The notes below the pieces were generated by a model. It did not search any database. It saw only the letters and a list, made by a program, of their open reading frames with translations, and was not told the origin of the DNA. Of a DNA stretch of 64,000 nucleotides, positions 7,420 through 14,311 are shown piece after piece. Positions within the stretch are counted from its first letter, which is position 1. Each line of letters opens with the position of its first letter. The translations under genes and the position numbers were made by a program. This DNA comes from a virus, in IMG/VR virus record IMGVR_UViG_3300025108_000015, positions 96,001-160,000 of that record; one strand, 5' to 3'.

Positions 7420-7493
7420 GGACTCGTAGCTCAGCTGGATAGAGCATCTGCCTTCTAAGCAGACGGTCATAGGTTCGAATCCTATCGGGTTCA
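7420..7493 (+). tRNA. trnR: tRNA-Arg(UCU)
   Basis: Cloverleaf: GGACTCG/CGGGTTC acceptor, anticodon loop CTTCTAA, TTCGAAT T-loop; no encoded CCA. Confidence 0.95.
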
Positions 7494-7585
7494 CATAGAG
7501 TGGGTAAAAAGTTTAGTACACCTCTGCAGGGGTAAATGTAAGTTACTATTAATAGGACTACGTATCCTAACGACTACTCTTATTT

Positions 7586-7657
7586 GCTCGGTTCGTCTAT
7601 CGGTTAGGACCTATGGTTTTCATCCATAAAAGAGGGGTTCGATTCCCCTACCGAGTA
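7586..7657 (+). tRNA. trnE: tRNA-Glu(UUC)
   Basis: GCTCGGT/ACCGAGT acceptor; TATGG-TTTTCAT-CCATA; TTCGATT T-loop. Confidence 0.93.
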
Positions 7658-7661
7658 CAAT

Positions 7662-7732
7662 TGTCCGATGGTGTAATGGCAACACTTCTGTTTTTGGTAC
7701 AGACATTCAAGGTTCGAGTCCTTGTCGGATAA
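7662..7732 (+). tRNA. trnQ: tRNA-Gln(UUG)
   Basis: TGTCCGA/TCGGATA acceptor; TCTGT-TTTTGGT-ACAGA; TTCGAGT T-loop. Confidence 0.93.
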
Positions 7733-7785
7733 CTAAGTTTACTAAAGTTGAGTAGACTATTTATTTAAAATTAAATTACAAAGTC

Positions 7786-8043
7786 ATGAGTAAAATTTCA
7801 AGAAGATTATTCCAAGCATTGGAATCAAAATATACGGCAGAGATTATGGATGCAAGAGCACGTATCTCTATCTACTTTGAAAATCCGGTAGCTATCGGAG
7901 AACACCCACAACATACTGAAGAGATTGATTTGTTAGTATCACAGTTGACTGATGCTACTGATAAACTATCTACACTACGTGATAACTTTGGCCAAGAGTA
8001 TGGTGAGTTTGATGATAACGACAAACAAGTATTAAAGGGATAA
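7786..8043 (+). CDS. conserved phage hypothetical protein inside the tRNA cluster
   Basis: IYFENPVAIGEHPQ motif recognisable from T4-like phage proteins. Confidence 0.75.
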   Translation: MSKISRRLFQALESKYTAEIMDARARISIYFENPVAIGEHPQHTEEIDLLVSQLTDATDKLSTLRDNFGQEYGEFDDNDKQVLKG

Positions 8044-8052
8044 TATCCGCTA

Positions 8053-8137
8053 GGAAGATTGGCAGAGTGGTCGATTGCACTGGTCTTGAAAACCAGCGTA
8101 CAGCAATGTACCATAGGTTCGAATCCTATATCTTCCG
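8053..8137 (+). tRNA. trnS: tRNA-Ser(UGA)
   Basis: GGAAGAT/ATCTTCC acceptor; CTGGT-CTTGAAA-ACCAG; long variable arm; G73. Confidence 0.95.
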
Positions 8138-8166
8138 CAATTCGCAGTCAAGTATTTTATATTTTA

Positions 8167-8198
8167 TTTGTTTTATTCAAAAAATTGTTGTATATTGT
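8167..8198 (+). promoter_or_regulatory. promoter for the Gly tRNA unit
   Basis: TTTG 8167-70; 20 nt; TATATTGT 8191-98; first tRNA begins at 8211. Confidence 0.7.
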
Positions 8199-8210
8199 AT
8201 AAACAATAAC

Positions 8211-8282
8211 GCGGGAGAAGACTTAAAAGAAAGTCGTCTATCATCCAGATAGAAGGTGTTGGGGCAGTACCAACCTCCCGCT
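8211..8282 (+). tRNA. non-canonical tRNA-Gly(UCC)-like RNA, copy 1
   Basis: All four stems are perfect Watson-Crick; GCGGGAG/CTCCCGC plus U73; anticodon loop CATCCAG (A33); T-loop GGCAGTA; A8. Confidence 0.85.
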
Positions 8283-8350
8283 CAAAGAGAATGGTTAAAG
8301 ATTGGGATAAGGCCGCTCAATTTAAGCTACCGGTTATCATTCTCTATAAT

Positions 8351-8422
8351 GCGGAAGAGGAGTTAAGAGAAACTCGTTGAACATCCAGTTCAAAGATGGT
8401 GGGGCGGAGCCACCCTTCCGCT
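8351..8422 (+). tRNA. non-canonical tRNA-Gly(UCC)-like RNA, copy 2
   Basis: All four stems are perfect; GCGGAAG/CTTCCGC plus U73; same loop CATCCAG; T-loop GGCGGAG; A8. Confidence 0.85.
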
Positions 8423-8428
8423 CAATAA

Positions 8429-8501
8429 GCGAAAGTAGCTCAGCTGGTAGAGCATCACCTTGCCAAGGTGGGGGTCGCGAGTTCGAATCTCGTCTTTCGC
8501 T
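8429..8501 (+). tRNA. trnG: tRNA-Gly(GCC), canonical
   Basis: GCGAAAG/CTTTCGC plus U73; loop TTGCCAA; TTCGAAT T-loop; D-loop GG. Confidence 0.95.
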
Positions 8502-8513
8502 CTAAGATTCTTA

Positions 8514-8805: not shown

Positions 8806-9240
8806 ATGATACATTGGTTTTATGGACAGCCAGGAAGTGGTAAGACCACACTGGCTAAAGCTATGATAAGTAACTCACCTCAATTGGAGTTTAAGAAACA
8901 CATACATATTGATGGTGATGAAATGAGAACTATCTTTAATAATAAAGATTACTCAAAAGAAGGTAGGTTGAATAACTTACGTAATGTTAATAATATAGCA
9001 AGATTCTTAGAATACAAAGGGTACGATGTATTCGTATCAGTTGTTGCTCCTTACAATGATATACGTGATGAGCTAAGGGATTTAGATATTAATTACTATT
9101 ACGTACATACAACTGAAACGAGGGGTCGTGAAGATTACTTTGCGTCTGATTTTGAATTCAACGACTCTGATATTAAAATTAACACAACAAACAAATCAGT
9201 TACTGAATCATTAAATGAAGTATTCACTATTCATAGGTAG
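8806..9240 (+). CDS. cysC: adenylylsulfate (APS) kinase-like protein, short
   Basis: P-loop GQPGSGKTT, IDGDEMR, RLNN, VSVVAPY. Confidence 0.82.
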   Translation: MIHWFYGQPGSGKTTLAKAMISNSPQLEFKKHIHIDGDEMRTIFNNKDYSKEGRLNNLRNVNNIARFLEYKGYDVFVSVVAPYNDIRDELRDLDINYYYVHTTETRGREDYFASDFEFNDSDIKINTTNKSVTESLNEVFTIHR

Positions 9241-9565
9241 GTGGCAACCATGGCACGAAGGTCATCAATGGTTAATTGACCAAGAGTTAAATAAAGGTAA
9301 TAACGTTTGTCTTGCTATACGAGATGTGGAGGTTGATGAGAATAACCCATGGACCGCTAAACGTATACAAATGAGATTGGGTCACATTCACTACGACTTG
9401 ATAACTCAAGGTAGAATTAAAACTGTTATTATTCCTGACATACAATCGGTTAACTATGGTAGAGGTGTGGGTTATGACATAAATGAACACGTGCCACCAC
9501 AAGAGGTATCCGACATATCAGCTACTAAGATTCGAGAACAAATGAAAAAAGATGGTAAGTTATAA
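9215..9565 (+). CDS. HIGH-family cytidylyltransferase-like nucleotidyltransferase
   Basis: FIGRWQPWHEGH (HxGH) and ISATKIR (KMSKS-like); overlaps cysC by 26 nt. Confidence 0.85.
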   Translation: MKYSLFIGRWQPWHEGHQWLIDQELNKGNNVCLAIRDVEVDENNPWTAKRIQMRLGHIHYDLITQGRIKTVIIPDIQSVNYGRGVGYDINEHVPPQEVSDISATKIREQMKKDGKL

Positions 9566-9951
9566 TGGAATTAATATCAACACATCCAGTTAAGAAATCT
9601 GATTTAGGATTTCATGCTAATCTATTTGGTGGTAAGTTACTTGCTTGGTTAGATGCAGCTGGGGCTGCGTTTGCATCTCAAGTATGTGACACTCCACGAG
9701 TCGTTACTATTAAGATAGACGAGTGTTTATTTAAACGACCAGCACGTGAGGGTCAGTTAATTAAGATATATGGTAGTGTTGCTGAGATAGGGACCACTTC
9801 GGTTACATTGTATATGGAAGCAAGAGCACATAACGTATACTCAGGTAATCAATCAGTTATACTATCTACAAACATAAAATTCGTAAGGGTAGATGAAAAT
9901 GGTGATTCAATACCTATATCGGATAGAGTTCGTGATAAATTTAAAAAATAG
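9565..9951 (+). CDS. acyl-CoA thioesterase (hotdog fold, YciA-like)
   Basis: DLGFHANLFGGKLLAWLDAAG, VAEIGTTS motifs. Confidence 0.9.
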   Translation: MELISTHPVKKSDLGFHANLFGGKLLAWLDAAGAAFASQVCDTPRVVTIKIDECLFKRPAREGQLIKIYGSVAEIGTTSVTLYMEARAHNVYSGNQSVILSTNIKFVRVDENGDSIPISDRVRDKFKK

Positions 9952-10545: not shown

Positions 10546-12660
10546 ATGAGAAGTATGTCAAAAAATAATCTATCCTATTCATCGTTCTGGCTTGATGAGT
10601 CAATCTTCGATGATACTGAGATTTCTTCAGTAGAAAAGAAGTCAAATGACTTAATGAAGTTAATGTCTTACAAACGTAGTATCGCTAACTTCGTTTCCAT
10701 CGTAACTGGCAAGTCAATTCCTGTGACCTTTGATGGTCGTGGAGACCAATCCTATACTGATGGTACTGAGGTTGTTATATCGGCTAAGTTAGATGATAAA
10801 GAGTTCGACCCTGTTGTTGGTCTGGCTCTCCACGAGGGTTCTCACATCGCACTGACTGACTTTACAACACTTACGGAAATGAATCGTGGTTACCTACCTA
10901 CTACTATTGATAAAGAGTGGATGGCTAATCGTTACCAATGTGAGACTGATGAACTTAGTCACATAGTTAGTAACAATCTAAAATCACTTCTTAACTACGT
11001 TGAAGATAGACGTATTGATAATCACGTTTACACTACGGCGCCTGGCTATCGTGGTTACTACGAGTCTATGTACGATAAGTACTTTCACTCTAAGGTAATT
11101 GACAAAGGTCTTGAGTCTTCTGAGTATCGTACTGAGGATTGGGATTCTTATATGTTCCGTATCATCAACTTGACTAACGAGAATCGTGACCTCGATGCTC
11201 TTAAAGGTCTTCGTGAGATTTGGAATGTACTTAATCTACGTAACATATCACGACTAAAATCATCGTGGGAAGCTATGGATGTGGCTGGTGAGATTCTTAT
11301 GATTGTTGAAAAACAACTTGAGGTTGCCGGTAGTGATACTGGCTCATCGTCTAATGGTGATGGTGAACCACAAGGTGGTGATAGTGAAAATGGTGAGTCA
11401 CCTATGAGTGGTGACACTGAGAATAACCCCACTTCTGATGATGGTATGAGTTCTAATGGAAATGGTGAAACATCACCAAGTGACTCCGATGATGGTTCAG
11501 ATTCAGATGATGAGTCTACACAAGGTGGGTCTCCAAGTGGTGAAGGTAATCCTAATGGGGCTGGTGGTCAATATGAACCACTCTCAGACCGCCAAAAGAA
11601 AATGTTGGATAACGCTATTGAAAAACAAAAAGAGTTTCAAGAAGGTGATGTTAAGAAGAAGAAGATTTCCAAGTCTGACAAGAATAAGATTGACCAATTA
11701 GATAAGGCTGATATCAAGTCTGAGGTTACTGGTAAGGGATTCGCCAAAAGTAATTGGTCGGTTGGTTCCAATGGAGTTCAAACCTACATTATTAACAATT
11801 TAACCCGTGGGTTAATTGATTCGGATATGGTGGGTATGTTGACTAATTCGGAATACAGAACCAGTGGTAGTGATAAGTATATCAAGAAGGGTATTCAGTT
11901 GGGTACTATTCTTGGTAAGAAACTCAAGACTCGTAATGAGGAACGTGTCCTCACTACCCCACGAATGAAGAGTGGTAAGTTGAGTAGTCGTATGATTCAT
12001 GAGATTGGGTTTGGTAACTTCGATATCTTTGAACAAACTTTAATAAGTAACGCTACACCGATTGTATTACATATTTCAATTGACGCGAGTTCATCAATGA
12101 ATGGGTCAAAATGGAATAGTACACAAACCGCTGCTGTGGCTATTGCTAAGGCGGCTTCGATGACTGACAACATTGATGTTGTTATTTCGTACCGAGGTAT
12201 CTACTACTCACCAGGCAATTGGAGTAAGTGTCAACCACTAATGTTGATTGCATATGATAGTCGTAAAGATAAGTTCTCAAAGATTCAACAATTATTTAAA
12301 CACATTCAATCCGATGGTACTACTCCTGAGGGATTGTGTTATGAGGCTGTGATGAATGAGATTACTAAAACCAAATCAGGTGTGGACACATACCTAATAA
12401 ACTTCTCAGATGGTTTTCCTGGTTTTGATAACCAAGAGATTTCTTATGGGGGTCAAGCCGCCAGAAAACATACGGCAGAGCAAGTGTCTAAAATGAGAAA
12501 GGCTGGAGTTAAGGTGTTGTCATATTTCATATCCGAATGGGAGGGGCATGGTACTGATGGGTTTAAACAAATGTATGGAAACGATGCTGAATTTATTGAC
12601 ACCAATAATATGACCCAACTGGCTAAGACCTTAAATAAGAAGTTTGAAGTTGTTATTTAA
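10546..12660 (+). CDS. VWA (MIDAS) protein with N-terminal HExxH metallopeptidase-like domain, CobT-like partner of the AAA ATPase
   Basis: ALHEGSHI; YVEDRRID; Ser/Gly/Asp linker; SIDASSSM MIDAS; GTTPEG; NFSDGFP. Confidence 0.88.
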   Translation: MRSMSKNNLSYSSFWLDESIFDDTEISSVEKKSNDLMKLMSYKRSIANFVSIVTGKSIPVTFDGRGDQSYTDGTEVVISAKLDDKEFDPVVGLALHEGSHIALTDFTTLTEMNRGYLPTTIDKEWMANRYQCETDELSHIVSNNLKSLLNYVEDRRIDNHVYTTAPGYRGYYESMYDKYFHSKVIDKGLESSEYRTEDWDSYMFRIINLTNENRDLDALKGLREIWNVLNLRNISRLKSSWEAMDVAGEILMIVEKQLEVAGSDTGSSSNGDGEPQGGDSENGESPMSGDTENNPTSDDGMSSNGNGETSPSDSDDGSDSDDESTQGGSPSGEGNPNGAGGQYEPLSDRQKKMLDNAIEKQKEFQEGDVKKKKISKSDKNKIDQLDKADIKSEVTGKGFAKSNWSVGSNGVQTYIINNLTRGLIDSDMVGMLTNSEYRTSGSDKYIKKGIQLGTILGKKLKTRNEERVLTTPRMKSGKLSSRMIHEIGFGNFDIFEQTLISNATPIVLHISIDASSSMNGSKWNSTQTAAVAIAKAASMTDNIDVVISYRGIYYSPGNWSKCQPLMLIAYDSRKDKFSKIQQLFKHIQSDGTTPEGLCYEAVMNEITKTKSGVDTYLINFSDGFPGFDNQEISYGGQAARKHTAEQVSKMRKAGVKVLSYFISEWEGHGTDGFKQMYGNDAEFIDTNNMTQLAKTLNKKFEVVI

Positions 12661-12671
12661 TGTTGATAACT

Positions 12672-12727
12672 TTAACATAAACTTAACATTAAAAGTTTGG
12701 ATTTATAAAATAAATGTCGTACTTTAG
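12672..12727 (+). promoter_or_regulatory. promoter with TTAACA box (site 4)
   Basis: TTAACA 12672-77 and 12683-88; TTTG 12696-99; 20 nt; TACTTTAG 12720-27. Confidence 0.78.
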
Positions 12728-12746
12728 TACTGTAAGATTGAGAGAT

Positions 12747-12965
12747 ATGAGAAAGACAATTGAAGTAAAAAAAGTTTTAGATTACGTTAACAACCAACTC
12801 CAACGTACTGATGAGTATTGCGATGATAAGTTCAAAGCAGGTATGTGTACAATGATTGAACGAATGTTGTATGATACCAATCAGTATAATGGGTACACCC
12901 CATTGAATGATGTTAATGTAGGTGAGGTTGGTTATTACAATCGGTTTTATCATATGAAAAGTTAA
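12747..12965 (+). CDS. small hypothetical protein
   Basis: Start moved downstream of the promoter, to ATG 12747. Confidence 0.65.
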   Translation: MRKTIEVKKVLDYVNNQLQRTDEYCDDKFKAGMCTMIERMLYDTNQYNGYTPLNDVNVGEVGYYNRFYHMKS

Positions 12966-13017
12966 CATAAACTTAACATTAAAAGTTTGGAGTTGTGAAC
13001 CTAAATCACTATATTTA
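12962..13017 (+). promoter_or_regulatory. promoter with TTAACA box (site 5); first 30 nt identical to site 4
   Basis: TTAACA 12962-67 and 12973-78; TTTG 12986-89; 20 nt; TATATTTA 13010-17. Confidence 0.78.
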
Positions 13018-13045
13018 CAGAGTAATAATTGAGAAATATAAAAAT

Positions 13046-14311
13046 ATGAAGTCACAAAAATCAGTTTTCGGTAAGATTGTAGAAGTAGACAATCAACTAA
13101 TGTTTCAAGACTCCAATGGAGTTAACTTCCTTATTGAGGAATTAAACGAGAAGGGTTCTTCTCTTTACAAACGTGCCAGAGCGGCCGCCAACAATCCTGC
13201 TAAGTGGGGATGGAAGGTTCGTGTCGTTGGTCGATTGTCCGATGGTGAGTTAGGACACACACGTGTTCCATCATCAAAGGTTGAAGATAACCTTGAGCCT
13301 GTTGGTAACTTCAACAATCCAAATGGTGGGTTGTTATCATTGGAGTATAAACCAAAATCACAATCAACACCAATTTCAGTTGAGATGTCAGATGATGTCC
13401 TCAAGTTTATTCACGAGGAGTCTGAAGGTCTTAAACCTCAGATGTTGTTTATGAATCCTTTGAAGTGGAAACTTCTTATTCGTAACATTATCCGTGGTAA
13501 GAATATTATGATGACTGGTCCAGCCGGTTGTGGTAAGACTATGGCTGCTAAGGCTGCTGCCAATTCAATTGAAGGTTACAACACCTTTGTAATTAACTTG
13601 GGAGCTACCCAAGACCCACGAACCACATTGATTGGGAACACTCAGTTTGAAACCAAGAAAGGTACGGTGTTTAACCCATCACCATTTGTCAAGGCGATAT
13701 CCACTCCAAATACCGTGGTTGTTCTTGATGAGTTGACTCGGGCCCATCCTGAGGCTCACAACATTCTAATGACCGTACTTGACCAAGGTCAACGTTACTT
13801 ACGTCTCGATGAGGCTGCTGACGCTCCTGTTGTTAAGGTCGCCGATGGTGTTTCGTTCATCGCCTCTGCTAACATTGGTAATGAGTACACCGCTACACGT
13901 TCTCTTGACCGGGCAATTCTTGACCGATTCATTCCAATTGAAATGGATACTTTGACTCGTGATGAGGAAACTCAACTACTTCAAATGATGTACCCATCGG
14001 TTGATATTGAGATTCTAAATAATGTTGCTGAGGTGACTTCCATGACTCGTAACGAGTTGATGTCTGAGTCTCCAAAGTTATCTAACGCACTATCTACACG
14101 GACCGCAGTTGAGATTGGGTCTCTACTCTACGATGGGTTCTCACTAAGTGAGGCTGCAGAGTTGGCTGTTTATCCAATGTTCGACCAAAGTGGTGGGGCT
14201 GAATCTGAAAGAGTTTATATGAAACAATATGTTCAGAAGTTCTTAGGTGAGATTCCTCAAGATGATAACTTGTTCAATGTTGAAACCGAAGATATTTCTA
14301 ATCCGTTTTAA
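13046..14311 (+). CDS. MoxR/CobS-like AAA+ ATPase
   Basis: Walker A GPAGCGKT; Walker B VVLDELTRA; LDRF arginine finger; start ATG 13046. Confidence 0.92.
   Translation: MKSQKSVFGKIVEVDNQLMFQDSNGVNFLIEELNEKGSSLYKRARAAANNPAKWGWKVRVVGRLSDGELGHTRVPSSKVEDNLEPVGNFNNPNGGLLSLEYKPKSQSTPISVEMSDDVLKFIHEESEGLKPQMLFMNPLKWKLLIRNIIRGKNIMMTGPAGCGKTMAAKAAANSIEGYNTFVINLGATQDPRTTLIGNTQFETKKGTVFNPSPFVKAISTPNTVVVLDELTRAHPEAHNILMTVLDQGQRYLRLDEAADAPVVKVADGVSFIASANIGNEYTATRSLDRAILDRFIPIEMDTLTRDEETQLLQMMYPSVDIEILNNVAEVTSMTRNELMSESPKLSNALSTRTAVEIGSLLYDGFSLSEAAELAVYPMFDQSGGAESERVYMKQYVQKFLGEIPQDDNLFNVETEDISNPF

Follow-up and report, generated by a model that had tools for sequence, protein, structure and literature searches.

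The 64,000-nt stretch of viral DNA analysed here (the window) covers positions 96,001 to 160,000 of the IMG/VR record IMGVR_UViG_3300025108_000015, a genome of 172,976 bases with a GC content of 35.6% and a T4-type portal and terminase, whose closest cultured relatives, judged by the portal, are Microcystis phage Mel-JY01 (54%) and Flavobacterium phage immuto (52%). Within the window, ARAGORN identified a phage tRNA array on the plus strand consisting of tRNA-Arg(TCT) (7420-7494), tRNA-Glu(TTC) (7586-7658), tRNA-Gln(TTG) (7662-7733) and tRNA-Ser(TGA) (8053-8138). An 85-aa ORF matching phrog_1811 (unknown function) lies inside the array on the same strand, between tRNA-Gln and tRNA-Ser (7786-8043), and is conserved in 21 loci. 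Downstream of tRNA-Ser are two 72-nt non-canonical tRNA-Gly-like RNAs, also on the plus strand, which we call tl1 (8211-8282) and tl2 (8351-8422), using tl for their RNA family; the 68-nt spacer between them (8283-8350, plus strand) contains a weak hairpin with a fold z of only -1.9. A canonical tRNA-Gly(GCC) (8429-8502, plus strand; ARAGORN and Rfam, 68.3 bits) starts 6 nt past tl2, in agreement with a preliminary description of the region, and ARAGORN found no canonical tRNA-Gly(UCC) in the whole genome.

The identification of tl1 and tl2 rests on their fold, a family model and covariation. As the preliminary description had claimed, each RNA alone folds into a cloverleaf with solely Watson-Crick stems (tl1, -29.2 kcal/mol, z -4.2; tl2, -28.3 kcal/mol, z -3.0). 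The layout is 7-2-4-8-4-1-5-7-5-4-5-7-5-7-1, with standard 7/4/5/5-bp stems, standard spacing and every stem cell paired. The two RNAs share the anticodon loop C-A-U-C-C-A-G (CATCCAG) and the T-loop GGCAGUA, and CCA is not encoded. The differences between the copies that had been noticed to preserve pairing are indeed compensatory, and they occur in the acceptor stem as well as in the D, anticodon and T stems. All of the unusual residues listed earlier were also found, namely the CATCCAG loop with A33, A8/U14, A18, G19, the T-loop GGC, G58 and U51-A63. Standard tools do not recognize these RNAs: neither ARAGORN nor Rfam RF00005, the latter even at E<=10, had a match at tl1 or tl2 or anywhere else between tRNA-Ser and tRNA-Gly of the window. 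We also considered a tRNA on the minus strand. The reverse complement folds, but a 5-bp arm directly follows the acceptor stem and a 4-bp/8-nt arm occupies the T position, an arm order that is not tRNA-like, and this candidate was rejected.

A promoter-like element of the Bacteroidota type lies 12 nt upstream of tl1 (8167-8198, plus strand), with TTTG at 8167-8170, a 20-nt spacer and TATATTGT at 8191-8198; no match to a sigma-70-type promoter was found upstream of tl1. A TTTG-N20-TAnnTTTG block (TA(ta)TTTG) recurs about 10 nt upstream of the first tl copy at many loci, in many diverged lineages. This conservation lends support to the earlier suggestion that the pair has its own promoter at 8167-8198, and it fits a Bacteroidota host as well as a dedicated promoter. 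The hosts of these tl-bearing marine T4-like phages are probably Flavobacteriia.

When 963 neighbouring ORFs from 60 tl loci were clustered, no transferase adjoining tl was found among them; the clustered neighbours are syntenic phage genes, comprising CobT/CobS-like proteins, small ORFs and a kinase/NTase/thioesterase set. Of all neighbours of the tRNA array, the CobT-like protein is conserved most widely, at 26 of 60 loci; in the window, a 704-aa version is encoded together with a MoxR/CobS-like AAA ATPase at 10546-14311. Two overlapping ORFs at 8806-9565 (144 and 116 aa) match, respectively, the N-terminal (7-87) and C-terminal (134-229) parts of phrog_10255 ('kinase'), which spans 230 positions, and they may represent a split or frameshifted gene. 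They are followed by a 4HBT thioesterase (9565-9951).

To define the family, a covariance model (R1) was built from tl1 and tl2, and IMG/VR was then scanned with a short pattern. R1 found full-length relatives at 34 of the 35 pattern loci (61 matches at 80-101 bits, mostly tandem pairs), and it scores about 100 bits on the near-identical contig copies of tl1 and tl2 in L028. About 20 more loci came from a second pattern in which positions 33 and 34 were left free, used with a model built from 33 sequences (R2), and the family now comprises at least 90 copies on about 55 IMG/VR phage contigs, with 51 distinct sequences. All 743 stem cells of the family are paired (100%), and 15 of the 21 pairs have changes on both sides; none of 500 shuffles equals this, and slid controls pair at 43-55%. 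tl is a structured RNA under selection. The length of the spacer between adjacent copies is not conserved among the relatives, where it can be as short as 4 nt or as long as about 450 nt, and a tRNA-Thr lies between the copies in some arrays. Searching 50,697 GenBank phage records with the tl pair by blastn gave no match. Among 185,579 cellular species genomes there was no true tl copy: the 67 pattern matches were all rejected by R2, and their number is close to the chance estimate (17 fixed bases, 596 billion bases, both strands). The covariance-model search proposed in the preliminary description has, in short, yielded conserved homologues in IMG/VR phage contigs and none in cellular genomes. 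The family looks phage-specific, being found only in viral contigs, and is new, without an earlier description in the literature searched.

Several RNAs lie at the edges of this family. Two appear to be evolutionary intermediates between a normal tRNA-Gly and tl: one (L039:4964-5035, minus strand) has a TGC T-loop and A33, and the other (L055:5445-5516, plus strand) has a normal T-loop, A8/U14 and the 8-nt loop CAUUCCAG. A second odd kind of tRNA-Gly occurs in a sister clade of Mom-bearing phages (L261-L268; G051-G056, G062 and G063), with either an 8-nt anticodon loop, again CAUUCCAG, or a 7-nt loop with G33, and with T-loops that are normal in some cases and GGCAG-like in others. Each array of the sister clade has up to three Gly(UCC)-type genes, and CCA is encoded in two genes.

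Comparison of the 51 distinct 72-nt copies separates fixed positions from free ones. In the acceptor and anticodon arms, G1-C72, C2-G71, G3-C70, U73, C35, C36 and A37 are fixed in 51 of 51 copies, and the same is true of A8, U14, A18, G19, A20, A21, G54, G55, C56 and G58 in the core and of G49-C65 and U51-A63 in the T stem, where the pair 50-64 is either U50-A64 or G50-C64. The acceptor pairs 4-69 and 5-68 keep their purine-pyrimidine order. One diverged lineage, outside the set of 51, is an exception with U2-G71. We take G1-C72, C2-G71, G3-C70, U73, C35 and C36 to be the bacterial GlyRS identity set; the glycine identity residues reported earlier for tl1 and tl2 (G1-C72, C2-G71, G3-C70 and U73) are present in both, and the retained identity elements are invariant across the 51 copies. 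Other positions drift: position 33 is A in 29 distinct copies, U in 20 and C and G in one each, position 34 is U in 41 and A in 10, and positions 15/48 are AA in 23, AU in 19, GU in 5 and UU in 4. Two earlier claims do not survive this comparison. A33 does not define the class, since position 33 takes all four bases, and it is instead a lineage trait; and the A15-U48 pair, thought to be kept, is not conserved (AU in 19 of 51). In elongator tRNAs, U8, A14, G18, U33, T54, U55 and A58 are near-universal. In tl, the residues at 8, 14, 18, 54, 55 and 58 are invariantly replaced, and 33 can be any base. The residues for glycylation are thus fixed, while the U-turn residue and the wobble base are allowed to drift, a pattern that indicates selection for charging rather than decoding.

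These counts bear on the possibility that the tl RNAs are unusual but working tRNA-Gly(UCC/ACC) decoders of GGA and GGG whose altered loops and core evade a tRNA-targeting nuclease or modification enzyme of host or phage, a reading we regard as unlikely. Their setting would suit such a role, as tl always lies within arrays made up almost wholly of U34 tRNAs for A-ending codons, most of which have no canonical tRNA-Gly(UCC); about 40% of the distinct copies have U33 and a normal-looking C-U-U-C-C-A-G loop, and variant tRNAs reportedly let phages escape tRNA-targeting defences (10.1101/2024.07.05.602228). On four contigs, however (L045, L052, L061 and L062), tl stands beside a canonical tRNA-Gly(UCC). 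Codon usage also argues against decoding: the glycine codons of the source genome are GGT 66%, GGA 19%, GGG 11% and GGC 5%, and relatives that lack tl have a GGA fraction as high as or higher than the 19% seen here (27% in the sampled part of G048, 60% in immuto). U33 is near-universal in decoders, whereas tl tolerates any base at position 33 and either U or A at 34, and the replacements of T54, U55, A58, G18, U8 and A14 are themselves invariant.

The same invariance can be read in terms of mimicry, with tl acting as a chargeable decoy or sponge that binds host defence toxins recognizing the acceptor stem of tRNAGly (toxSAS such as FaRel2, or GNAT toxins such as TacT/AtaT2) or titrates GlyRS. 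The fixed G1-C72, C2-G71 and G3-C70 pairs, together with the purine-pyrimidine order at 4-69 and 5-68, include the pairs that FaRel2 reads, and such RNAs, with a promoter of their own, would have no duties in translation. Yet a stoichiometric sponge is a weak strategy against an enzyme, an acceptor-stem decoy has no need of a strictly invariant elbow, and we found no link between the tl family and any defence system. A decoy also leaves unexplained the co-variation with Mom and DruA-type genes described below, and we consider this role improbable.

The T stem was compared as well. In proteogenic tRNAGly, tight EF-Tu binding is associated with G49-U65, C/U50-G/A64 and G51-C63, and the weak set of the staphylococcal non-proteogenic tRNAGly is A49-U65, U50-A64 and A51-U63 (PMC7826273). 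The T stem of the window's tRNA-Gly(GCC) (G49-U65, C50-G64, G51-C63) corresponds to the tight set, from which tl differs at two of the three pairs; by analogy, U51-A63 and G49-C65 may affect EF-Tu binding.

Mu Mom is a GNAT that takes glycine from Gly-tRNAGly and attaches it to N6 of adenine in dsDNA; every tRNAGly isoacceptor works, the acceptor end is probably what is read, and this transfer is known for Mu Mom and two metagenomic homologues only (PMC13219725). The search for GNAT or Fem-like transferases elsewhere in the genome that the preliminary description had recommended turned up tandem Mom-family GNATs: using Mu Mom as the query, we found two ORFs outside the window and about 70 kb from the tl pair, Mom1 (G000:C1:33024-33785) and Mom2 (G000:C1:33769-34563), which together span C1:33024-34563 (L445:9025-10564) and overlap by 17 nt. 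Both are full-length on Pfam PF25680 (147.7 and 165.7 bits, respectively, against a cut-off of 27.1), and Mom1 matches the Mom of PDB 8bv8 with E 1.4e-10. The Mu Mom residues H58, Y59, R111, S124, D149 and Y159 are invariant, and R151 is replaced by K or E. As Mu Mom is a homodimer, a Mom1-Mom2 heterodimer is conceivable by analogy. The two genes are placed between ribonucleotide reductase and DNA polymerase B, in the replication module, and the pair keeps its place beside ribonucleotide reductase in all deep branches examined. Between Mom2 and the polymerase lie genes for proteins of 610 and 372 aa (p610 and p372; G000:C1:34635-37594, L445:10636-13595), for which no match was found in Pfam, PHROG or PDB; p372 is kept beside the polymerase in G043, G053, G033 and G038.

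The presence of tl closely follows that of Mom. Two to three Mom genes are present in each of the 12 tl-bearing records with a completeness of at least 70%, and in eight of eight at 90% or above. Starting from the Mom side, six of six additional long contigs (73% complete or more) carry odd tRNA-Gly genes, with the 8-nt loop CAUUCCAG or G33, with GGCAG-type T-loops in some, and often beside a canonical tRNA-Gly(UCC). For the phage group overall, Mom is present in 19 of 19 genomes that carry such RNAs and are sufficiently complete, and none of four relatives without Mom (G048, immuto, Mel-JY01 and RM378) has tl, a distribution of 19 : 0 : 0 : 4 that gives a Fisher p of ~1e-4, uncorrected for phylogeny. 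Contigs not covering both loci (G047, G065, G017, G030 and G006) were left as uninformative; G017, G030 and G006, three of the longer tl-bearing fragments without Mom, are also missing the polymerase that neighbours Mom, so the replication module lies off these fragments.

The most informative of the relatives without Mom is G048, which is 94% complete and has a portal 85% identical to that of the source phage, yet lacks Mom, the DruA-like gene and tl. Its tRNA array retains Arg, Ala and Glu, and its replication module is missing exactly the MazG-like/Mom1/Mom2/p610/p372 block. The portal tree places G048 inside the positive clade as the sister of G001/G012/G025 (support 98/99), which implies that two loci about 70 kb apart were lost together. 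The tRNA sets of immuto and Mel-JY01 are small (Ser/Glu/Gln and Leu). Joint presence and loss with Mom would not be explained if the tl RNAs were decoders. The independent events are few, however, at least one gain and one joint loss within one broad phage group, and phage genomes differ in many accessory genes.

Outside this group, Mom-like genes are rare among GenBank phages (199 of 50,697 records), and no tl was found in eight unrelated cultured phages that have a Mom-like gene. Mu Mom, moreover, takes ordinary host tRNAGly, so that a private tRNA is unnecessary for Mom, and within this phage group tl seems to accompany Mom as an accessory without being required by it. One cyanophage unrelated to the group, Synechococcus phage S-SSM7 (L436, NC_015287 216654-217395), has a Mom-like gene beginning 35 nt downstream of a tRNA-Leu, and its record yielded no tl-type RNA.

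Mom is not the only gene with this distribution. Just after DNA polymerase B lies a gene for a DruA/DUF4338-type GNAT (G000:C1:40864-42054, L445:16865-18055; PF14236, E 7e-24; PADLOC DruA, 5e-26), and tl could be a glycyl donor for this protein instead of Mom, with a target that is perhaps not DNA adenine. Of 19 positive genomes, 18 have PF14236, against none of four negative ones, and DUF4338 has been described as a GNAT domain (PMC10853773). As it co-varies with tl almost as well as Mom does, the DruA-type protein is a second candidate user. No member of the DruA family has a known tRNA-dependent activity, though, and the direct biochemical precedent belongs to Mom; furthermore, in G051 (92% complete), Mom and odd Gly tRNAs occur without a DruA match. 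hhalign of the DruA-like protein against the Mom profile gave nothing, no PDB relative was found, and its single-sequence AlphaFold model is unusable (pLDDT 37). We think it doubtful that the DruA-type protein is the user in place of Mom.

The closest parallel to tl is found in S. aureus and S. epidermidis, where the non-proteogenic tRNAGly NP1-NP3 are donors for FmhB, FemA and FemB; these RNAs have TGC or TGT T-loops, bind EF-Tu weakly and are used by the Fem GNATs (PMC7826273). Like tl, they are extra tRNAGly(UCC) paralogues that keep GlyRS identity, and U55 of the T-loop is lost in both (TGC/TGT in staphylococci, GGC in tl); the intermediate at L039:4964-5035 has TGC, as the staphylococcal RNAs do. 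In both, T-stem pairs depart from the tight EF-Tu set, and each is accompanied by an enzyme of the GNAT superfamily that draws its glycine from Gly-tRNA, Fem in staphylococci and the Mom family in the tl phages. In contrast to the staphylococcal RNAs, tl is phage-encoded, its core has been rewired much further (A8/U14, A18, G54, G58), position 33 is unconstrained, and the partner is a Mom-type DNA modifier rather than a Fem peptidoglycan transferase. tl is not of the staphylococcal tRNAGly lineage, as the 185,579 cellular species genomes contain no true copy.

Compared with phage Mu Mom (PF25680, PDB 8bv8), the phage studied here has two full-length Mom-family genes with the same catalytic residues, and the acceptor end, which is thought to be read by Mu Mom, is conserved in tl. 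The systems differ in that Mu has one mom gene and no tRNA genes and uses host isoacceptors, whereas the tl phages have two overlapping mom paralogues kept as a pair, K or E in place of R151, and a private tRNA-like family. With the ordinary phage tRNAs of T4-like arrays, tl shares its setting, size, cloverleaf, lack of an encoded CCA and transcription with canonical tRNAs, but it differs from them in failing both RF00005 and ARAGORN, in keeping none of the seven near-universal residues as a constant feature, and in an anticodon loop that is unconstrained for decoding.

Taken together, the conservation pattern, the co-inheritance and the precedent best support the reading in which tl1 and tl2 are phage-encoded, non-decoding ('non-proteinogenic') derivatives of tRNA-Gly that serve as glycyl donors for Mom, and on sequence and analogy we judge this to be reasonably probable. 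Of the three options raised in the preliminary description (a glycine donor for a non-ribosomal transferase, a GlyRS sponge or a decoy for anticodon nucleases), the first is favoured by the full GlyRS identity set, the drift at 33 and 34, the Mom GNATs and their joint presence and absence with tl; the transferase, on the other hand, appears to be of the Mom type and not the Fem type. We envisage that tl is transcribed from its own promoter together with tRNA-Gly(GCC) and processed like a tRNA, with CCA presumably added by the host enzyme since it is not encoded. We infer that host GlyRS would charge tl through its intact identity set, and that the rewired elbow (A18-G55, G54-G58, A8-U14), U51-A63 and the free positions 33 and 34 would exclude it from EF-Tu and the ribosome, and hence from translation. 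Gly-tl would then donate its glycyl group to phage GNAT transferases, most likely Mom1 and Mom2, which would act on N6 of adenines in the phage DNA in the manner of Mu Mom; the DruA-type GNAT inherited along with them may use Gly-tl instead or as well. Further observations weigh against tl as the donor for Mom. The tl and Mom loci are about 70 kb apart and in separate operons, and many copies have an ordinary C-U-U-C-C-A-G loop in arrays that mostly have no Gly(UCC), so that some decoding is possible.

In its strongest form, the proposal is that a large group of marine T4-like phages possesses a private tRNA insulated from translation, whose sole job is to deliver glycine to Mom-type enzymes for adenine hypermodification, with the rewired D/T-loop elbow offering the transferase a recognition handle and serving as an anti-determinant against EF-Tu and the ribosome; we see this version as evenly poised between right and wrong. 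To our knowledge, staphylococci are so far the only organisms with documented non-proteinogenic tRNAs, which work there in building the cell wall, and it was only in 2026 that Mom was shown to modify DNA in a tRNA-dependent way, with host tRNAs. A phage-encoded, Mom-linked tRNA-like family that standard finders have missed would join those two findings. If the proposal is true, the family would be without precedent both as a non-proteinogenic tRNA of a virus and as a tRNA dedicated to DNA modification. Confirmation would mean that viruses are able to set aside part of the aminoacyl-tRNA pool for nucleic-acid chemistry; it would provide a natural case of a chargeable tRNA kept out of translation, and would flag a probable adenine hypermodification in abundant marine phages.
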